Positions 1 through 31,744 of a stretch of DNA of 31,744 nucleotides are shown here, piece after piece; positions within the stretch are counted from its first letter, which is position 1, and each line of letters begins with the position of its first letter. Both the position numbers and the translations under genes were made by a program. The notes beneath the pieces are model-generated. The model made no database searches and was not told the DNA's origin. It saw nothing but the letters and a program-made list of their open reading frames with translations. This DNA is from Spirochaetota bacterium (GTDB lineage Bacteria; Spirochaetota; UBA4802; JAFGDQ01): positions 1 to 31,744 of the forward strand of contig JAZDKB010000034.1 in NCBI GenBank assembly GCA_043803405.1, given 5' to 3'.

Positions 1-132
1 TTTAATACGTTCTCACTTATCCTTCTATCCATAAAGGCTGCCTCCTTTGTTTTTTAACTTCGCAACTTAAAACTCTTAAAGAAGGTGGCCTTTATCCTTA
101 TTTTGTCAACTCACTACTAACATAGTAAACCC
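1..132 (-). mobile_element. Left end of a putative insertion sequence (reads outward, truncated by the contig end), including the first codons of a probable transposase (ATG at 32, MDRRISENVL...)
   Basis: 1-141 is the exact reverse complement of 31604-31744. It contains TTGACA, an RBS-sequestering hairpin, AGGAGG and an ATG opening a frame that runs off the edge. Family not determinable from 10 codons; inner boundary uncertain by a few nt. Confidence 0.65.
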
Positions 133-212
133 TCTCTGCTTCGCAAAGAGGGGGAATTGTGATATTTTTCTCCCCTTCTCTTTTTAAAGAGAAGGGGCCG
201 GGGGGATGAGTT
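130..212. repeat. REP-like double-hairpin intergenic repeat abutting the IS end
   Basis: Hairpins CCCTCTCTGC-TTC-GCAAAGAGGG (130-152) and CCCCTTCTCTTT-TT-AAAGAGAAGGGG (172-197), then GGGGGATGAGTT. A diverged inverted copy lies at 31494-31615. Confidence 0.8.
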
Positions 213-265: not shown

Positions 266-307
266 CCGGTACAATAGTACCGGGGGCTTGCCCCGGGGAA
301 TTTTATT
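266..307. repeat. GC-rich palindromes CCGGTAC-aata-GTACCGG and GGGGCTTGCCCC (dispersed repeat, possible terminator role for the minus-strand operon)
   Basis: 283-307 GGGGCTTGCCCCGGGGAATTTTATT matches 27281-27305 at 24 of 25 positions. Confidence 0.6.
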
Positions 308-25787: not shown

Positions 25788-27011
25788 ATGACAACAGAAA
25801 GACTTAAAATAGACCTGAGTTATCTTGGACCGGAAAGTATATTGATCTATCCGTTATATACTGAAAAAGGCGAAAAGATACTGGAAGCGAGAACTGCACT
25901 CTCAGTAGATATAATCAATAATATTATTCAGAGGCATGGTAAGGTAGTTTATTACTCCTTTGCCGATGAAATGGGGAACATACCGAACCACAGAATTTTC
26001 AGTGCATTGCATAAATCGCGCGAAATAATGGATGACATAATCCATACCGACAAAATCAGCAAAGCCAGGTACCGGGAGTCCGAAGAGCTCGTTGAGCTGA
26101 TGTTAAACGATCTTGTTTCATCTGAGACCGACACGATCAAGCTCCTTAAGGACTTGAATTCTTATGATGATTATACTTATAATCATTCCGTAAATGTACT
26201 GCTTCTTGCAGCAGTATTCGCCAACAAAATGAAAAAATACTCTATGGATGAGATGAAATCCCTGATGCTTGGCGCTTTCCTTCACGATATCGGTAAAATG
26301 AAGCTGGATAAACAGCTATTAAACAAGAAAGGAAAGCTTGATGTTTCCGAATTTCAAAAGATGAAAAGGCATCCTCAGCTTGGCTATGAAATAATAAAAG
26401 GCATTGCCGGATCGGATACGATAGTTCAGCAGTGTATTCTGTTCCATCATGAAAAATTTAATAATAAAGGATATTACGGGCTGCCTTATGAACATTTGCC
26501 TACATATCCTAAAATAATTGCCATTTGCGATGTTTTTGATGCTTTGACTTCCCGAAGGCCTTACAGGAGCGCAGCTTCCCCGGCAATTGCGCTAAAGACT
26601 TTGTTAAACTCTATCAATAATCATTTTGATTATGATCTGGTTGATAAATTTATAAATATGCTTGGGCCTTTTGTAAATAATACAAGACACTTTTACGGAA
26701 AGCACGAAATTTGCGAACTTAACACACAGGAACTTGCGCTTATAGTCGGACTGGGCGAAAAGGATATTTTAAAGCCTGACGTTTTTGTTTTCTGCAAATA
26801 TCAGAAAACAAAAAATAAAATAAACGTAAAATTTTACGAGAAGCCATTCAAGGTGAATCTGCAAAATGATGAACACAGGTTTATGATGAATGTTTTAAGC
26901 AATGAGTATCAGGTATATTCACTTAAGAACAGACTACTTGAAAAGACTCTTTTAAAAATGGAAGCGATGGGGCCTGTTACATTTAATTTTGAATCAAAAA
27001 CGATTAATTAG
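25788..27011 (+). CDS. HD-GYP-like cyclic-dinucleotide phosphodiesterase (GYY variant)
   Basis: DDYTYNHS, LHDIGK, HPQLG, HHEKFNNKGYY, DVFDALTSRRPYR. Confidence 0.9.
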   Translation: MTTERLKIDLSYLGPESILIYPLYTEKGEKILEARTALSVDIINNIIQRHGKVVYYSFADEMGNIPNHRIFSALHKSREIMDDIIHTDKISKARYRESEELVELMLNDLVSSETDTIKLLKDLNSYDDYTYNHSVNVLLLAAVFANKMKKYSMDEMKSLMLGAFLHDIGKMKLDKQLLNKKGKLDVSEFQKMKRHPQLGYEIIKGIAGSDTIVQQCILFHHEKFNNKGYYGLPYEHLPTYPKIIAICDVFDALTSRRPYRSAASPAIALKTLLNSINNHFDYDLVDKFINMLGPFVNNTRHFYGKHEICELNTQELALIVGLGEKDILKPDVFVFCKYQKTKNKINVKFYEKPFKVNLQNDEHRFMMNVLSNEYQVYSLKNRLLEKTLLKMEAMGPVTFNFESKTIN

Positions 27012-27136
27012 TTCTTAATTGAGTTGATATTTTATTTATTATAAAAAAATTCCTTGACAAGCAATTTATTTATAGTTTTTATATCATCAACAAATATAAT
27101 ACAAAGTAAAAAATAATAAATTAAGATAATTAAAAA

Positions 27137-27193
27137 ATGACCAACTTTCAAACCATGGCCTTCACCTTTAGTAACTTTAAATTTACAGGATGA
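27137..27193 (+). CDS. Phe-rich attenuator leader peptide MTNFQTMAFTFSNFKFTG
   Basis: 18 codons with 5 Phe, followed by mutually exclusive hairpins and a U-tailed terminator. Too short for the ORF track; no strong Shine-Dalgarno. Confidence 0.7.
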   Translation: MTNFQTMAFTFSNFKFTG

Positions 27194-27244
27194 AGACTGC
27201 TCATGGAATGAAGAGATTCTTAAGTCGAAAACAAACCGTGGGCA
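27153..27244 (+). promoter_or_regulatory. Attenuator protector (1:2) and antiterminator (2:3) helices
   Basis: 1:2 = CCATG..CTTCA.CCT..GTAA (27153-27174) with TTAC.AGG.TGAAG..CATGG (27183-27206). 2:3 = TGCTCATGG (27198-27206) with CCGTGGGCA (27236-27244), 9 bp including 2 G-U. Confidence 0.7.
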
Positions 27245-27262
27245 AAAACCCACGGTTTTTTT
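27233..27262 (+). terminator. Intrinsic terminator (attenuator 3:4 hairpin)
   Basis: AAACCGTGGG-CAAAAA-CCCACGGTTT, with a run of 7 T at 27256-27262; about 80 nt upstream of the dehydratase start. Confidence 0.85.
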
Positions 27263-27278
27263 GTTTTAGGGCACAACA

Positions 27279-27305
27279 CAGGGGCTTGCCCCTGGGAATT
27301 TTATT
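27279..27305. repeat. CAGGGGCTTGCCCCTG palindrome; second copy of the 283-307 repeat
   Basis: 24/25 identity with 283-307. Confidence 0.6.
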
Positions 27306-27342: not shown

Positions 27343-28590
27343 ATGTCTTTGGAGAAAAAAGCAGTAAGAAAAAAAATTAAAACCGCCGAAGCCATGGGCA
27401 AATATATGGCTGCTTATTATTATGAACTTGATAGTGCTTCAAAGAAAGGAGATAAAAAAATAGCATGGTGCACAAGCGTTGGGCCTGCCGAATTATTAAG
27501 GGCAATGGGTTTTCTGATTTACTTCCCTGAAACGCACGCTGCAATGCTGGGAAGTACGCGAATGTCGACTGATTATATTCCCTATGCTACGGCTCTGGGA
27601 TATTCTCCCGATGTCTGCTCATATATGACATCGGATATCGGGGCATTTACTCAGGGTGTAACACCGCTGTCTAAAGCATTTCCCGGTATAACAAGCATTC
27701 CCAAACCGGATGTTCTTGTTTTTAATACGAATCAGTGCAGGGATGTTCAGGACTGGTTCGAGTGGTATGCAAGGAAATATAAAGTTCCGGTTATGGGGGT
27801 AAGCGGAAACAGGAGCGTTATAGACAGCAAGGAAAGTATTGTAACATCGATGAAAAAACAGATCGAGGAGCTGGTTGATCCTCTCGAAAAGATTTCCGGA
27901 AATAAATTCGATATTGATAAATTAAAGGATGCAGTCGGGCTTTCACGCAAATGTTCCGACCTCTGGAAAGAGACGCTTGAATCGGCCTCTGCTGTTCCCG
28001 GGCCTTTGACTTTCTTTGACGGCTGCACTCTTATGGGCCCGGCTGTTGTCGGCAGGGGCACTCAGGCTGCTGTCGATATTTACACCGATCTGCTTAACGA
28101 GATGAAAGAGAGAATAAAAAACAAGGAGGGCGCTATTCCGGAGGAGAAATTCCGTCTTTACTGGGATGGCATGCCGGTATGGGGAAGGCTGGGCGCGCAT
28201 TCCCAGATGTTCGCTGAATTAAAAGCGAATGTTCTTGCTTCCACTTACTGCAGCAGCTGGATATTCACTGCTCTTGAAGCTGCCGATCCGTTCAGGAGCA
28301 TGGCACAGGCGTACACTGACTTGTTTATTGTCCGCTCCGATGAATACAAAGAACAGTATGTTAAAGATAAAATAGATTTGTATAAGGTTGACGGCATAAT
28401 TTATCATGACTCAAAGACATGCCCTAATAATACAAATTGCCGTTATGGTTTATCCAAACGCATAGAAGAAAGAACCGGCTTGCCGGGTCTTACTATTTAT
28501 GGCGATCTGAACGATCTAAGATGTCTTTCGGATGAACAGACAAAGACGAATGTAGAAGCATTTATTGAGCAGCTCGCGGAAAATAAATAA
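27343..28590 (+). CDS. 2-hydroxyacyl-CoA dehydratase family subunit (HgdA/FldB/HadB/BcrB-like, HGD-D domain)
   Basis: IAWCTSVGPAELLRAMG..FPE, GYSPDVCSY, PKPDVL...NQC, FRLYWDG.P.W, VDGIIYH...C, GDLND. ATG at 27343 has a GGGGG RBS (track start 27331). Confidence 0.9.
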   Translation: MSLEKKAVRKKIKTAEAMGKYMAAYYYELDSASKKGDKKIAWCTSVGPAELLRAMGFLIYFPETHAAMLGSTRMSTDYIPYATALGYSPDVCSYMTSDIGAFTQGVTPLSKAFPGITSIPKPDVLVFNTNQCRDVQDWFEWYARKYKVPVMGVSGNRSVIDSKESIVTSMKKQIEELVDPLEKISGNKFDIDKLKDAVGLSRKCSDLWKETLESASAVPGPLTFFDGCTLMGPAVVGRGTQAAVDIYTDLLNEMKERIKNKEGAIPEEKFRLYWDGMPVWGRLGAHSQMFAELKANVLASTYCSSWIFTALEAADPFRSMAQAYTDLFIVRSDEYKEQYVKDKIDLYKVDGIIYHDSKTCPNNTNCRYGLSKRIEERTGLPGLTIYGDLNDLRCLSDEQTKTNVEAFIEQLAENK

Positions 28591-28613: not shown

Positions 28614-29996
28614 ATGGCGCTTACAAAAAACATAATTAATGATCTGAAAAAATTAGCAGGGGAGGGCGGCGTTTTAAGTGCAGAGGCCGACCTGGCCGCG
28701 TACTCCTATGACGGGACAACTAACTGGCAGTCGATGCCGGAAGCAGTTGTGTTCACGGCCACTGCTGAGCAAATATCCGGCATAATGAAGCTGGCAAGCG
28801 CGAATACGATACCTGTAACAATGCGCGGAGCAGGCACGTGCCTCAGCGGAGGGCCTGTGCCTGTTGCGGGCGGGATTGTCATCTGCACAACGCGCATGAA
28901 CAGGATCATTGAGATCGATAAAGAAAATTTTACCGTGACTGCCGAAGCCGGCGTTGTTTTGAACAATATGAATCTGGAGCTTGCTAAAAACAAACTCTTT
29001 TTCCCGCCCGATCCGCAGAGCTTTCTGGCAGCAACAATAGGCGGCTGCGTTTCCGAAGGCGCCGGCGGCCCGTACGCAGTAAAGTACGGCGTATTCAAGC
29101 ATTATATACTCGGCATGACTGTTGTACTGGTCAACGGCACGGTCATGAATCTGGGCGGGAACACTGTGAAGAACGTGACAGGCTACGATCTTCCGCAGCT
29201 GATATGCGGCTCCGAGGGCACTTTGTGCGCCGTAACGCAGGTGAAGCTTCGGGTGCTGCCGCGTCCTGAGGCTGTGCAGACTATCATGGCTGTATTCAAC
29301 GATGTTACTGATTCAGGGCGCGCTGTGCACCTGGTGCGGTCGAGCGGGGTTATCCCTGCAAAGATCGAGATGATAGACAACTGGGTGATACGCCGCATTG
29401 AAGAAGCAATGCCGATGAACCTGCCTTTGACTGCGGATGCGATTCTTCTGTTTGAGCTTAACGGCACACGCGAGACCATTGCAAAGGAAAACGATTTAGT
29501 CGTAAAGCTGTGTAAAGAAGCAGGGGCAGTGGATGTACGGCCTGCCAGGGATGCAAAGGATTCGGACAATCTATGGGCTGCGCGTAGGGCAGGCTTCTCA
29601 ATGATTTACGGAGCAGCAGCGACTGTTATGGCTGAGGATGTTGTTGTACCCACAAGCAAAATACCTGAATTTATTGACCGGATCAAGCAGATACGAAAGA
29701 AATATGATGTAACAACAGTAATAATAGGCCATGCGGGGGACGGGAACCTGCATCCTTCTGTGCTCACGGATAAAAAAGACGCGGAACATTACGCGAGGTC
29801 CGAAAAGGCTGTTGAGGAGATATTTAAAACAGCGCTGGAACTTGGTGGGGCGATATCCGGCGAGCACGGCATAGGACTTGAGAAAAAGAGATTTTTGAAG
29901 CAGGCGATATCTCGGGAAGAAATTACGCTCCTGAAAGAAATAAAGAAAGTCTTTGATCCTAAGGGCATACTGAACCCGGGCAAGATATGGGAGTAA
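28614..29996 (+). CDS. glcD: FAD-linked 2-hydroxy-acid oxidoreductase, GlcD/D-lactate dehydrogenase family
   Basis: RGAGTCLSGG, PPDPQS, TIGG, KYG, VKNVTGYDL, GSEGTL, HAGDGNLH, ISGEHGIG, FDPKGILNPGK. Symbol reflects the family; substrate unknown. Confidence 0.88.
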   Translation: MALTKNIINDLKKLAGEGGVLSAEADLAAYSYDGTTNWQSMPEAVVFTATAEQISGIMKLASANTIPVTMRGAGTCLSGGPVPVAGGIVICTTRMNRIIEIDKENFTVTAEAGVVLNNMNLELAKNKLFFPPDPQSFLAATIGGCVSEGAGGPYAVKYGVFKHYILGMTVVLVNGTVMNLGGNTVKNVTGYDLPQLICGSEGTLCAVTQVKLRVLPRPEAVQTIMAVFNDVTDSGRAVHLVRSSGVIPAKIEMIDNWVIRRIEEAMPMNLPLTADAILLFELNGTRETIAKENDLVVKLCKEAGAVDVRPARDAKDSDNLWAARRAGFSMIYGAAATVMAEDVVVPTSKIPEFIDRIKQIRKKYDVTTVIIGHAGDGNLHPSVLTDKKDAEHYARSEKAVEEIFKTALELGGAISGEHGIGLEKKRFLKQAISREEITLLKEIKKVFDPKGILNPGKIWE

Positions 29997-30204: not shown

Positions 30205-31440
30205 ATGGCATATCCTATATTAAAAGACTCAACGGATGCTTGCATGAAATGCGGTTTCTGCATGTCCAACTGCCCTGTGTACAATATCGACAAGCTGGAA
30301 GCGCATGTTGCGCGTGGCCGCAACATGCTTATACAGCTTGCTGAAAACAAAAAAATCGTTCCGGATAATTATTATAAATCCATTTTGTATTATTGTCTTT
30401 TGTGCGGCCGGTGCGAGGCAATGTGCCCTGCAAAGGTATTGTCCAATACTATAACCTTAAAGGCAAGGAAAGAGCTGATAAAGCAGACCGGGCTGTCGCT
30501 TATGCAGCGCCTTGTTTACAGGGGTTTGATAAAGCACCGTTCGTTCTTTGCGCGGCTGGGAGCTTTGGCGACGCTTGTTCCGGGACTGACTGCGAAAGAG
30601 AATCAGCCGATCCGTCATTTCCCGGATATTGTTTCAGCAGCACTGACCGGCGTATCCTTCCCAAGATTATCCGTACCGTTTTTGACGAAGCGTGTTAAAA
30701 AGAAAGCGAAGAGTGAAAGCGTGTGGCAGGCCGCAAAGATCGCGTTTTTCTCAGGCTGCCTTACCGAGTTCTTTTTCGCGAGTACAGGCACAGACATGAT
30801 TTCTATATTACAGCAGGCAGGGTACAACGTCGATCTTCCGGAGCAGACATGCTGCGGTCTTGCAGTGTACTCTGCAGGGGATTTCGATACTGCTGTTGTA
30901 ATGGCAAAACGCAACATTGATTCATTATCCGGATACGATTATATTGTCACTGGCTGCGCGAGTTGCAGTTCAACTTTGAAAGGCTACGTGAACTGGTTCG
31001 ATGAAGGAGAATATAAACAGAAGGCAGTTGAGCTTTCAAAGAAAGTGAAGGACTTTGCACAGTTTATTGTTCAGCAGGATATTAAACCGAAAGGCGTCTC
31101 GGGCAAACCATTAAAGGTTACGTATCATGATCCATGCCATCTTCGATGGAAGCAGGGCATACTTGCAGAGCCGAGGGCTGTGCTTAAAAATATTGACGGA
31201 GTCGAGTTTGTCGAGATGGAGGGCGCGGATTCGTGCTGCGGTCTTGGCGGATCGTTCGGGATTACGCACCCGGACGTTAGCAAAGCTATACAGGCAAAGA
31301 AAGTCGAAGCAATAAAAAAAAGCGGAGCGGACGTCGTTGTCACATCTTGCCCGGGCTGCATGATACAGCTAATGGACGGCCTGCGCCGCTATAAGCTGCC
31401 TGTAAAGGTAATGCATATAGCGGAACTGATGAAGAAGTAG
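30205..31440 (+). CDS. glcF: GlcF-like Fe-S subunit (2x[4Fe-4S] plus two CCG domains)
   Basis: CMKCGFCMSNCP, CLLCGRCEAMCP, FSGC, TCCG, CASC, YHDPCH, SCCG, SCPGC. Confidence 0.9.
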   Translation: MAYPILKDSTDACMKCGFCMSNCPVYNIDKLEAHVARGRNMLIQLAENKKIVPDNYYKSILYYCLLCGRCEAMCPAKVLSNTITLKARKELIKQTGLSLMQRLVYRGLIKHRSFFARLGALATLVPGLTAKENQPIRHFPDIVSAALTGVSFPRLSVPFLTKRVKKKAKSESVWQAAKIAFFSGCLTEFFFASTGTDMISILQQAGYNVDLPEQTCCGLAVYSAGDFDTAVVMAKRNIDSLSGYDYIVTGCASCSSTLKGYVNWFDEGEYKQKAVELSKKVKDFAQFIVQQDIKPKGVSGKPLKVTYHDPCHLRWKQGILAEPRAVLKNIDGVEFVEMEGADSCCGLGGSFGITHPDVSKAIQAKKVEAIKKSGADVVVTSCPGCMIQLMDGLRRYKLPVKVMHIAELMKK

Positions 31441-31493: not shown

Positions 31494-31615
31494 AACTCAT
31501 CCCCCATCCCCTTGCGCGGAGCCTCCCTTTGGGACTCTTTAAAAAGAGAAGGGGAGAAAAACATCCAATTCCCCGTGCAAAGCCTACCATGGGACTCTTT
31601 GCAAAGCAGAGAGGG
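31494..31615. repeat. REP-like double-hairpin repeat (inverted, diverged copy of 130-212) carrying two micro-insertions
   Basis: Aligns with the reverse complement of 130-212 once 31514-31534 and 31575-31594 are removed. Confidence 0.8.
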
Positions 31616-31744
31616 TTTACTATGTTAGTAGTGAGTTGACAAAATAAGGATAAAGGCCACCTTCTTTAAGAGTTTTAAGTTGCGAAGTTAAAAAACAAAG
31701 GAGGCAGCCTTTATGGATAGAAGGATAAGTGAGAACGTATTAAA
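31613..31744 (+). mobile_element. Left end of a putative insertion sequence with the start of a probable transposase (ATG 31713, MDRRISENVL...), truncated by the contig end
   Basis: Identical to the reverse complement of 1-132. TTGACA 31636-31641, AGGAGG 31699-31704, hairpin covering RBS and start. Confidence 0.65.

Follow-up and report, generated by a model that had tools for sequence, protein, structure and literature searches.

The codons of an attenuator name the product that its operon supplies. What product, then, is named by a phenylalanine-rich leader that stands in front of a radical 2-hydroxyacyl-CoA dehydratase in a spirochaete? The window examined here—the whole 31,744-nt stretch of DNA, which is the entire contig C34 of genome G000—raises this question. 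The original prediction placed a phenylalanine-type transcription attenuator there, and sequence, translation and fold bear out its upstream open reading frame (uORF), its antiterminator (27198–27206 paired with 27236–27244) and its terminator (27233–27262). The answer we favor, and regard as evenly poised, is that this is a ribosome-controlled phenylalanine attenuator, on when charged tRNA-Phe is scarce, and that its operon makes phenylpyruvate, and from it phenylalanine, out of cinnamoyl-CoA.

Anatomy and folding of the leader

The leader and its immediate surroundings comprise these parts:

27054..27059, + strand: TTGACA after an A-tract, candidate -35 box of the leader's own promoter; motif position kept in the genus
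27137..27193, + strand: leader uORF of 18 codons, MTNFQTMAFTFSNFKFTG, with ATG at 27137 and TGA at 27191–27193
27153..27206, + strand: 1:2 hairpin (protector or pause hairpin) of the minimum free energy fold, 5' arm about 27153–27174, 3' arm 27183–27206
27198..27206, + strand: core of segment 2 (5' arm of the antiterminator), starting 4 nt past the uORF stop
27203..27211, + strand: ATG-GAA-TGA, inside segment 2, with a second stop in the uORF frame six codons past the first
27233..27264, + strand: intrinsic terminator, segment 3 at 27233–27244 and segment 4 at 27249–27258, then a U-run
27279..27305, + strand: remnant of a dispersed repeat, with many copies elsewhere in the genome, absent from the leaders of relatives

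Phenylalanine occupies uORF codons 4, 9, 11, 14 and 16, as translation verifies. The frame has no Tyr, no tandem Phe and four aromatic codons in eight, and is the weakest among the five leaders of its family. Its Shine–Dalgarno sequence is as weak as the original prediction warned, the duplex being worth -0.4 kcal/mol versus -8.4 kcal/mol for the dehydratase gene. The terminator stem is 10 bp long (27233–27258), and 27236–27244 is the part of segment 3 that can pair with the antiterminator instead. TTGACA lies 182–185 nt upstream of the terminator in G000 and in two relatives, G001 and G002, although the upstream genes differ, and this constancy of position makes it a likely -35 box for a promoter that the leader has to itself. 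In G000 it is not followed by a -10 box at canonical spacing (16–18 nt), and a consensus promoter scan did not call the site. An RNA run (0.09 share) gave three short contigs, all of them inside genes and none on the leader.

All five leaders of the family have a second in-frame stop, TGA in four and TAA in one. The ATG-GAA-TGA of G000 aligns to the L-P-M-D-stop with which other leaders, those of Desulfobacterota, end, and it is likely from this alignment to be a relic of that longer end; alternatively, translation might re-initiate there and so keep segment 2 covered. G000 encodes tRNA-Sec, and the leader stops are likewise TGA in four of the five and TAA in one; the one TAA makes general read-through of the stop by tRNA-Sec unlikely. 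A second hairpin, at 27279–27294, was considered as part of the attenuator and rejected, being the dispersed genome repeat. That palindromic repeat also occurs near window positions 283–307, and its pattern has 14 matches in the genome.

The leader region folds at z = -4.73, with none of 200 shuffles as good, and it contains a mutually exclusive antiterminator and terminator that share one segment. The helix energies are -16.1 kcal/mol for 1:2, -14.8 for 2:3 and -15.8 for 3:4. Among the 26 intergenic terminators that a scripted scan found ahead of same-strand genes in G000, this one alone has a biased uORF together with an antiterminator duplex, and the duplex ranks first among the 17 terminators that have enough upstream DNA. 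Enrichment in phenylalanine by itself singles out one of six short ORFs, the leader uORF, from what is a tiny background.

Folding was then constrained by a ribosome, with the transcript ending at segment 3 and the footprint assumed to be 9 or 12 nt (PMC4833913 states one of up to 12 nt). With the ribosomal A site anywhere at codons 2–16, the probability of the 2:3 helix in the G000 leader is 0.96–0.98; at the uORF stop it is 0.16 with the 9-nt footprint and 0.0 with the 12-nt footprint. All five family leaders show an equal step with ribosome position. The geometry originally proposed thus stands in computation—a ribosome at the stop codon blocks segment 2, and one on a Phe codon frees it—but it is not specific to Phe. 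Stalling at any codon from 2 to 16, Thr included, works, so that specificity for Phe or Thr can come only from comparison with relatives. The proposed 1:2 protector forms in the minimum free energy fold, but does not hold segment 2 at equilibrium, for the probability of 2:3 in ribosome-free RNA is 0.90 (0.68–1.0 across the five leaders). Since 1:2 does not dominate over 2:3 at equilibrium, any protector role would be kinetic. On full-length RNA the terminator always prevails (0.999), and this, taken with the value of 0.90, means that the decision itself must be kinetic. In the mechanism we propose, a ribosome arriving at the stop codon (27191) would cover segment 2, 3:4 would form and RNA polymerase would stop; with the ribosome held at a Phe codon, segment 2 would stay accessible and could pair with segment 3 ahead of the synthesis of segment 4.

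Conservation among spirochaetes and the wider leader family

Orthologs of the dehydratase, 65–78% identical, occur in five of 60 relatives, and in three of these (G001, G002 and G006) a uORF and an antiterminator stand ahead of the gene. The uORFs read MINNQFMAYSYYFFYYYYPNG in G002, MINNQSMAHSYYYFFYYSTV in G001 and MKALLRALNYYYYYYYYYLNS in G006. Across the phylum, the leader pattern matches four of 401 sampled genomes, all of this family and close kin of one another, always before the orthologous dehydratase, with no control matches; in all four, the dehydratase directly follows the terminator as first gene. That copy is the sole one in G000 and in G002. G001 has a second copy, with a Tyr run, ahead of the next gene, which encodes the thioesterase. 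G005 has the operon (dehydratase 76% identical) and no leader; in G015 the activator gene is upstream of the dehydratase.

The core of segment 2 and the 4-nt spacer after the stop are identical in all five family leaders. The leaders of the relatives carry runs of 7–9 aromatic codons, up to nine Tyr in a row, mixing TAT and TAC; G000 has none, and codons 9 and 11, which are Tyr in G002, are Phe in G000. Thr sensing, which the four Thr codons had made an alternative, is disfavored, because these codons are not kept in the relatives. The comparison refines the original prediction: the spirochaete leaders would sense both Tyr and Phe, and the G000 copy would be a weaker, Phe-only version.

Similar leaders extend well beyond the spirochaetes. 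A pattern of the terminator alone, independent of the uORF, found at least 120 stretches in metagenomes; 80 loci were fetched, and the 75 matches with at least 150 nt upstream were analyzed. Four or more F/Y/W codons in eight occur in uORFs of 29 of the 75 (shuffles: mean 3.1, maximum 7), and five or more in 28 (mean 0.54, maximum 4). The antiterminator duplex of the 29 averages -17.1 versus -8.7 kcal/mol; among the remaining 46 are leaders of Leu, Ala and Trp type as well as unrelated terminators. Shikimate genes follow 17 of the 29, homologs of the operon's thioesterase-like gene six, amino-acid-type ABC binding proteins two and a GNAT-like protein one, the remaining three loci containing no downstream gene. 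Several of these leaders share both their N-terminus and their C-terminal end with the spirochaete leaders; in them segment 2 lies inside the last uORF codons, whereas an earlier stop precedes it in the spirochaetes. Some neighbors merit mention in their own right. Branched-chain-type ABC binding proteins at three loci (L144, L173 and L196) are likely to be aromatic amino acid importers; Phe-rich leaders were called at L144 and L196, and L173 has too little upstream DNA to call one. At two others (L163:2501 and L184:1493), Ala-rich leaders with the same terminator, candidate alanine-sensing attenuators, precede an aminotransferase of the PRK06855 family. On the reverse strand of L200, before 1512, a leader with a Trp run lies ahead of the alpha gene of an indolepyruvate:ferredoxin oxidoreductase (IOR), which suggests a biosynthetic use of this enzyme.

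The exact terminator pattern matches only two of 50 genomes that have more distant dehydratase homologs, so it undercounts and a covariance model is needed. One was built from 32 leaders, seeded with the fixed terminator, and it matches 89 of the 101 genomes in the class to which G416 belongs, Desulfobacteria, at 123 places. We examined 71 of these matches: the top 30, and 41 chosen mostly as second matches. The top 30 all have 6–8 aromatic codons in eight and all precede shikimate entry genes (five assigned by profile scans, the remainder by N-termini). Among 40 further downstream genes, 37 belong to aromatic biosynthesis: the 40 comprise 10 DeoC-family aldolases of the ADH-synthase type, eight DAHP synthases, two fusions of DAHP synthase with prephenate dehydratase (PDT), 13 trpE, one trpD-like gene, three pheA, one leuA and two others. 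Leaders with Trp clusters precede all 13 trpE genes, and Phe-only runs precede both fusions (L375 and L381). In other families of the same spirochaete order, DAHP synthase is preceded by F/Y/W leaders and trpE by a leader with a Trp run. At one further locus (L365, G663:C1141) two Trp-rich leaders stand back to back and divergent, one before trpE and the other before DAHP synthase. The leader family is, then, common in Desulfobacteria, with codons matched to products. Because the codons track the downstream product, the polarity of the switch is likely to be on in starvation, and for the G000 copy itself we consider this response to phenylalanine starvation fairly probable.

Covariation was checked on an alignment (A2) of 34 leaders, 33 of them not named in the training set, near-duplicates of training rows being possible. 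Helix 3:4 is 97.9% paired, with 23 cells changed on both sides and none of 500 shuffles equaling it; the alignment is fitted to this stem, on which its compensatory figures therefore depend. Changes in helix 2:3 are mostly one-sided (both sides change in one cell here and in two in another comparison); this helix was not part of the model, and 92.8% of its cells are paired versus 30–53% when it is slid. Kinship inflates the pairing and covariation figures alike.

The operon and its metabolic setting

Downstream of the leader the window holds:

27343..28590, + strand: lone HadB/FldB-like (alpha-type) 2-hydroxyacyl-CoA dehydratase subunit (PF06050)
28614..29996, + strand: GlcD-type FAD-linked 2-hydroxy-acid dehydrogenase subunit (TIGR00387, 456 bits, below the cut-off)
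30205..31440, + strand: GlcF/LdhH-type Fe–S subunit (domain and family profile matches)
31610..31744, + strand: start of an insertion sequence (IS) at the contig end, matching an IS copy on contig C18

All three operon genes are intact in G000. The dehydratase scores best against HadB among NCBIfam profiles (223 bits, below the cut-off of 750) and against 3o3m_A in the PDB (E 2.7e-48). Its S45, E63, C92, C132 and C360 align to identical residues of 3o3m_A, and we take these to be the active-site serine and glutamate and the cluster cysteines. One review mentions, among such residues, only a conserved glutamate (PMC5897657). The operon has no beta subunit; the only other G000 match is a 425-aa protein, 21% identical, with its own activator, on C15. 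An ORF from 31714, tried as a beta subunit, was rejected as the start of the transposase. The ATP-dependent activator is encoded inside the operon in G001, G002 and G006 and on C45 in G000, where it is 83% identical to that of G002 and sits beside the same class II DAHP synthase. The 3' end of the C18 copy of the IS matches the end of C45, so the activator gene would lie behind the other end of the IS in which C34 ends. Window positions 1–150 and 31595–31744 are inverted copies, both of them the start of this IS.

The operon of G006 encodes dehydratase, a protein of metallo-beta-lactamase (MBL) fold, GlcD, GlcF and activator; those of G001 and G002 are without GlcD/F, and that of G001 adds a CoA ligase. 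The MBL protein of the relatives, the thioesterase-like protein above, matches PqsE best in the PDB (E 4e-14, residues 19–220). Its operon ortholog is missing from G000, where the only relative found is a 55% paralog on C27. Phe/Tyr leaders precede homologs 41–56% identical (the 56% figure covers just 55 residues) in six of the 29 metagenome loci and in G496. In two other genomes, enoyl-CoA hydratase, MBL, dehydratase and activator genes occur in a row, the MBL gene without a leader. A further observation concerns the loci L175:2573–4192, L179:2582–5029 and L172: a 540-aa protein with GNAT-like features and no Pfam match follows a Phe/Tyr leader by itself and, at 62% identity, matches the C-terminal half of a protein that also carries a PqsE-like domain; it was not found in G000. 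Among 80 more distant dehydratase homologs, mostly of Desulfobacterales type, 75 have an activator within 3 kb, 59 an ADP-forming ligase and 56 an AMP-forming ligase, and none an MBL or GlcD gene; none has such a leader, and the activator is directly upstream in most.

In three relatives (G003, G004 and G006), pheA-(aroF)-tyrA follows scpB, and in G000, G001 and G002 scpB abuts cmk: on this synteny the genus has evidently lost pheA-tyrA from between scpB and cmk. G001 and G002 (90 and 93% complete) have chorismate synthase and a lone chorismate mutase; neither a PDT nor a genuine PDH was matched in either of them. One weak PDH match in G001 was set aside; by neighborhood and N-terminus, read by eye, it looks like ProC. 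In G000, a pheA-aroF-tyrA cassette (L121/L123, C13 83416–86439) lies before comM, a site at which the relatives have none. Its PheA is 44–46% identical to the full-length PheAs of the family, which share 56–67% mutually, and its TyrA 33–40%, versus 49–63% within the family; a cassette so divergent was likely re-acquired. The covariance model (R1) has no match at this pheA. A general anticorrelation between the operon or its MBL gene and pheA/tyrA was tested and failed: both genes are present in G000, G005 and G006, and in all five Desulfobacterota genomes that have the thioesterase-like gene.

Where might cinnamoyl-CoA come from? Oah scores above its cut-off in all five family genomes tested, and in 16 of 20 dehydratase-bearing comparison genomes. 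Its presence in all five makes intermediates of the benzoyl-CoA pathway plausible as a source, and fits catabolic use equally. Two enzymes of the anaerobic benzoyl-CoA pathway score above the cut-off in G000, Had and Oah (L401; C29 45667–46773 and 55771–56910). G000 also has a PaaK-IorAB cluster, which could be another route of phenylpyruvate supply. In G001 (C54; L276/L395) and G002 (C1; L277/L396), genes for a paralogous GlcD/GlcF pair, for acyl-CoA ligases and for IorAB form a single run, which links this type of dehydrogenase to the metabolism of aryl 2-oxo acids.

The route proposed, the 3-aryllactate pathway in reverse, likely turns cinnamoyl-type CoA esters into arylpyruvates. Its first step would be a hydration by the ATP-activated radical dehydratase, in which cinnamoyl-CoA—or p-coumaroyl-CoA, under a Tyr-sensing leader—becomes (R)-aryllactyl-CoA; the PqsE-like thioesterase would release aryllactate, pulling the uphill hydration; and the GlcD/GlcF-type enzyme would oxidize aryllactate to arylpyruvate for transamination. 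Dehydration of aryllactyl-CoA can be reversed, though the forward direction is preferred (PMC5897657); the reverse reaction would have to be drawn along by hydrolysis of the thioester and by oxidation. In G000, a sensor of Tyr/Phe would have narrowed to Phe alone, and the paralog on C27 would have to take over the thioesterase step. We infer both the supply role of the operon and the reversal of the dehydratase, reading the substrate from the leader alone. At its fullest, the proposal is tentative, a possibility we would not put on a par with the shorter version given at the outset: these spirochaetes would make Phe and Tyr by a reversed 3-aryllactate (Stickland) pathway, in which a one-subunit radical enzyme alpha-hydrates cinnamoyl- or coumaroyl-CoA and the reaction is drawn onward by a thioesterase resembling PqsE and by a flavin dehydrogenase; the leader would have been borrowed from a shikimate operon of Desulfobacterota; the pathway would replace the deleted pheA-tyrA in G001 and G002; and single-base codon changes would have retuned the G000 leader from Tyr/Phe to Phe.

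Competing explanations and known systems

Could the G000 leader be simply an inherited attenuator in decay? With pheA-aroF-tyrA re-acquired, selection would have relaxed and the Tyr run eroded, leaving a poorly translated uORF and an operon mostly terminated or insensitive to Phe. The absence of Tyr and of tandem Phe, against runs of 7–9 aromatic codons in the relatives, agrees with this, as do the -0.4 kcal/mol Shine–Dalgarno duplex, the loss of the thioesterase gene, the IS behind glcF and the divergence of PheA and TyrA given above. Yet the frame is open, spacer, segment 2, second stop and terminator are intact, and so are the three operon genes; Tyr codons 9 and 11 of G002 read Phe in G000 rather than random residues; and Phe-only leaders do occur elsewhere, before the DAHP synthase–PDT fusions. 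We think decay rather unlikely, though worth keeping in mind. That the hairpin is nothing but the terminator of the HD-GYP gene, which ends at 27011 on the same strand, and that the uORF either owes its Phe codons to chance and AT-rich DNA or senses Thr, we find scarcely credible, four Thr codons and weak Shine–Dalgarno sequence notwithstanding: the leader is conserved, and TTGACA retained, in G001 and G002, next to another upstream gene of divergent orientation, the relatives have not kept the Thr codons, and 29 of 75 metagenome matches have aromatic uORFs versus 3.1 in shuffles.

Two further explanations concern the operon more than the leader. The attenuator might work as proposed and the dehydratase not run in reverse; starvation would turn on the recovery of aryllactate, through thioesterase and dehydrogenase, to arylpyruvate, or some other supply step, with the dehydratase a passenger or acting on another substrate. 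Thermodynamics disfavor hydration, and the thioesterase-like gene occurs alone behind Tyr/Phe leaders (L197, L203 and G496) and, in L179, fused to a GNAT-like domain. The dehydratase is, however, first after the terminator in all four leader-bearing genomes, and the sole leader site in G000 and G002, and on balance we consider this account unlikely. The operon might instead be catabolic, leading from phenyllactyl-CoA through cinnamoyl-CoA to benzoyl-CoA, and its leader induced by amino acid excess in the manner of TnaC, or captured without matching logic. This is the known direction of FldBC and HadBC, one proposed also in a sulfate reducer (PMC13416013), and Oah in the five genomes tested, with Had in G000, accords with it. 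But stalling at any codon gives read-through, and runs of hungry codons precede biosynthetic genes in 67 of the 70 class loci that have a downstream gene; an arrest peptide would be conserved in sequence, and the leader peptide is not; and four of five family loci lack the ligase that usually accompanies the dehydratase, an oxidizing dehydrogenase or hydrolase being present. Catabolic use thus strikes us as very improbable, and a starvation-responsive supply operon remains the reading we prefer.

If that reading is correct, there is a further route to Phe and Tyr, from lignin-type C6–C3 acids. The leader codons point a widespread but uncharacterized radical dehydratase of one subunit, together with a hydrolase resembling PqsE, toward aromatic amino acid supply—the opposite of the textbook direction of the dehydratase family—and give substrates to test. 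What is new here comprises the Phe-only variant, the GlcD/F partners, the deletion of pheA-tyrA recognized by synteny and the census of a leader family that, although present in 89 of 101 sampled Desulfobacteria genomes, is not in Rfam. In the literature searched, outside subscription journals, we found no paper that describes this deltaproteobacterial leader family or a dehydratase of this kind used in reverse, nor any example, in the same search, of a tested tyrosine-sensing attenuator. Lopatovskaya et al. 2010 (Mol Biol 44:128), as cited in PMC4833913, may already list some of these leaders. Attenuators have been predicted before tyrA operons in other groups (PMC1173090).

Among known systems, the closest in design are pheL (pheA) and pheM (pheST) of E. 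coli, which likewise have a short Phe-rich uORF, alternative hairpins and an intrinsic terminator, and which read out charged tRNA-Phe (PMC11802643, PMC3082878). The leader studied here differs in its target, an operon for a radical dehydratase, and in its host, a member of Spirochaetota. At gathering scores, Rfam has no match to the window or to the G000 leader, nor to the leader even at E up to 1, and no T-box or riboswitch family matches. Weak sub-threshold matches to Leu, Thr and Phe leaders are confined to the copies of relatives, the best of which reaches 28.6 bits against RF01859 (Phe_leader), whose gathering score is 55; with no match of its own, and a PF06050 gene rather than pheA downstream, the G000 leader is, judged by sequence, not a member of the enterobacterial pheL family. 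The aroR-aroF leader of Corynebacterium glutamicum, too, controls aromatic supply by Phe/Tyr codons, but has only Phe-Tyr-Phe and does not respond to Tyr availability (Neshat et al. 2014, as cited in PMC11802643), whereas in the spirochaete relatives as many as nine Tyr codons follow one another, ahead of an unrelated target; these nine-Tyr leaders are direct candidates for a tyrosine-sensing attenuator.

With HadBC and HadI (3o3m) and FldABC of Clostridium sporogenes, the operon shares an alpha-type subunit, alignable over residues 22–415, and an activator of the BcrAD/BadFG family. It differs in having no beta subunit, CoA-transferase or NADH-linked reductase, a PqsE-like hydrolase and GlcD/F instead, and a starvation-type leader, from which the opposite direction is predicted. 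PqsE of Pseudomonas aeruginosa is the best solved match, though a distant one, of the relatives' MBL-fold gene, and names of its PDB entries include 2-aminobenzoylacetyl-CoA thioesterase; for the MBL protein such activity is a prediction, and G000 differs in having no operon ortholog. In Methanococcus, an aryl-acid route makes aromatic amino acids by way of arylacetate, a CoA ligase and indolepyruvate oxidoreductase. That route also salvages aryl acids into arylpyruvates, and G000 has a PaaK-IorAB cluster; but it carboxylates a C2 acid, and the route proposed here would hydrate a C3 enoyl-CoA. Set beside all of these, the switch is classical, of the pheL, pheM, trpL and aroR type, and the novelty lies in the pathway it is predicted to regulate.
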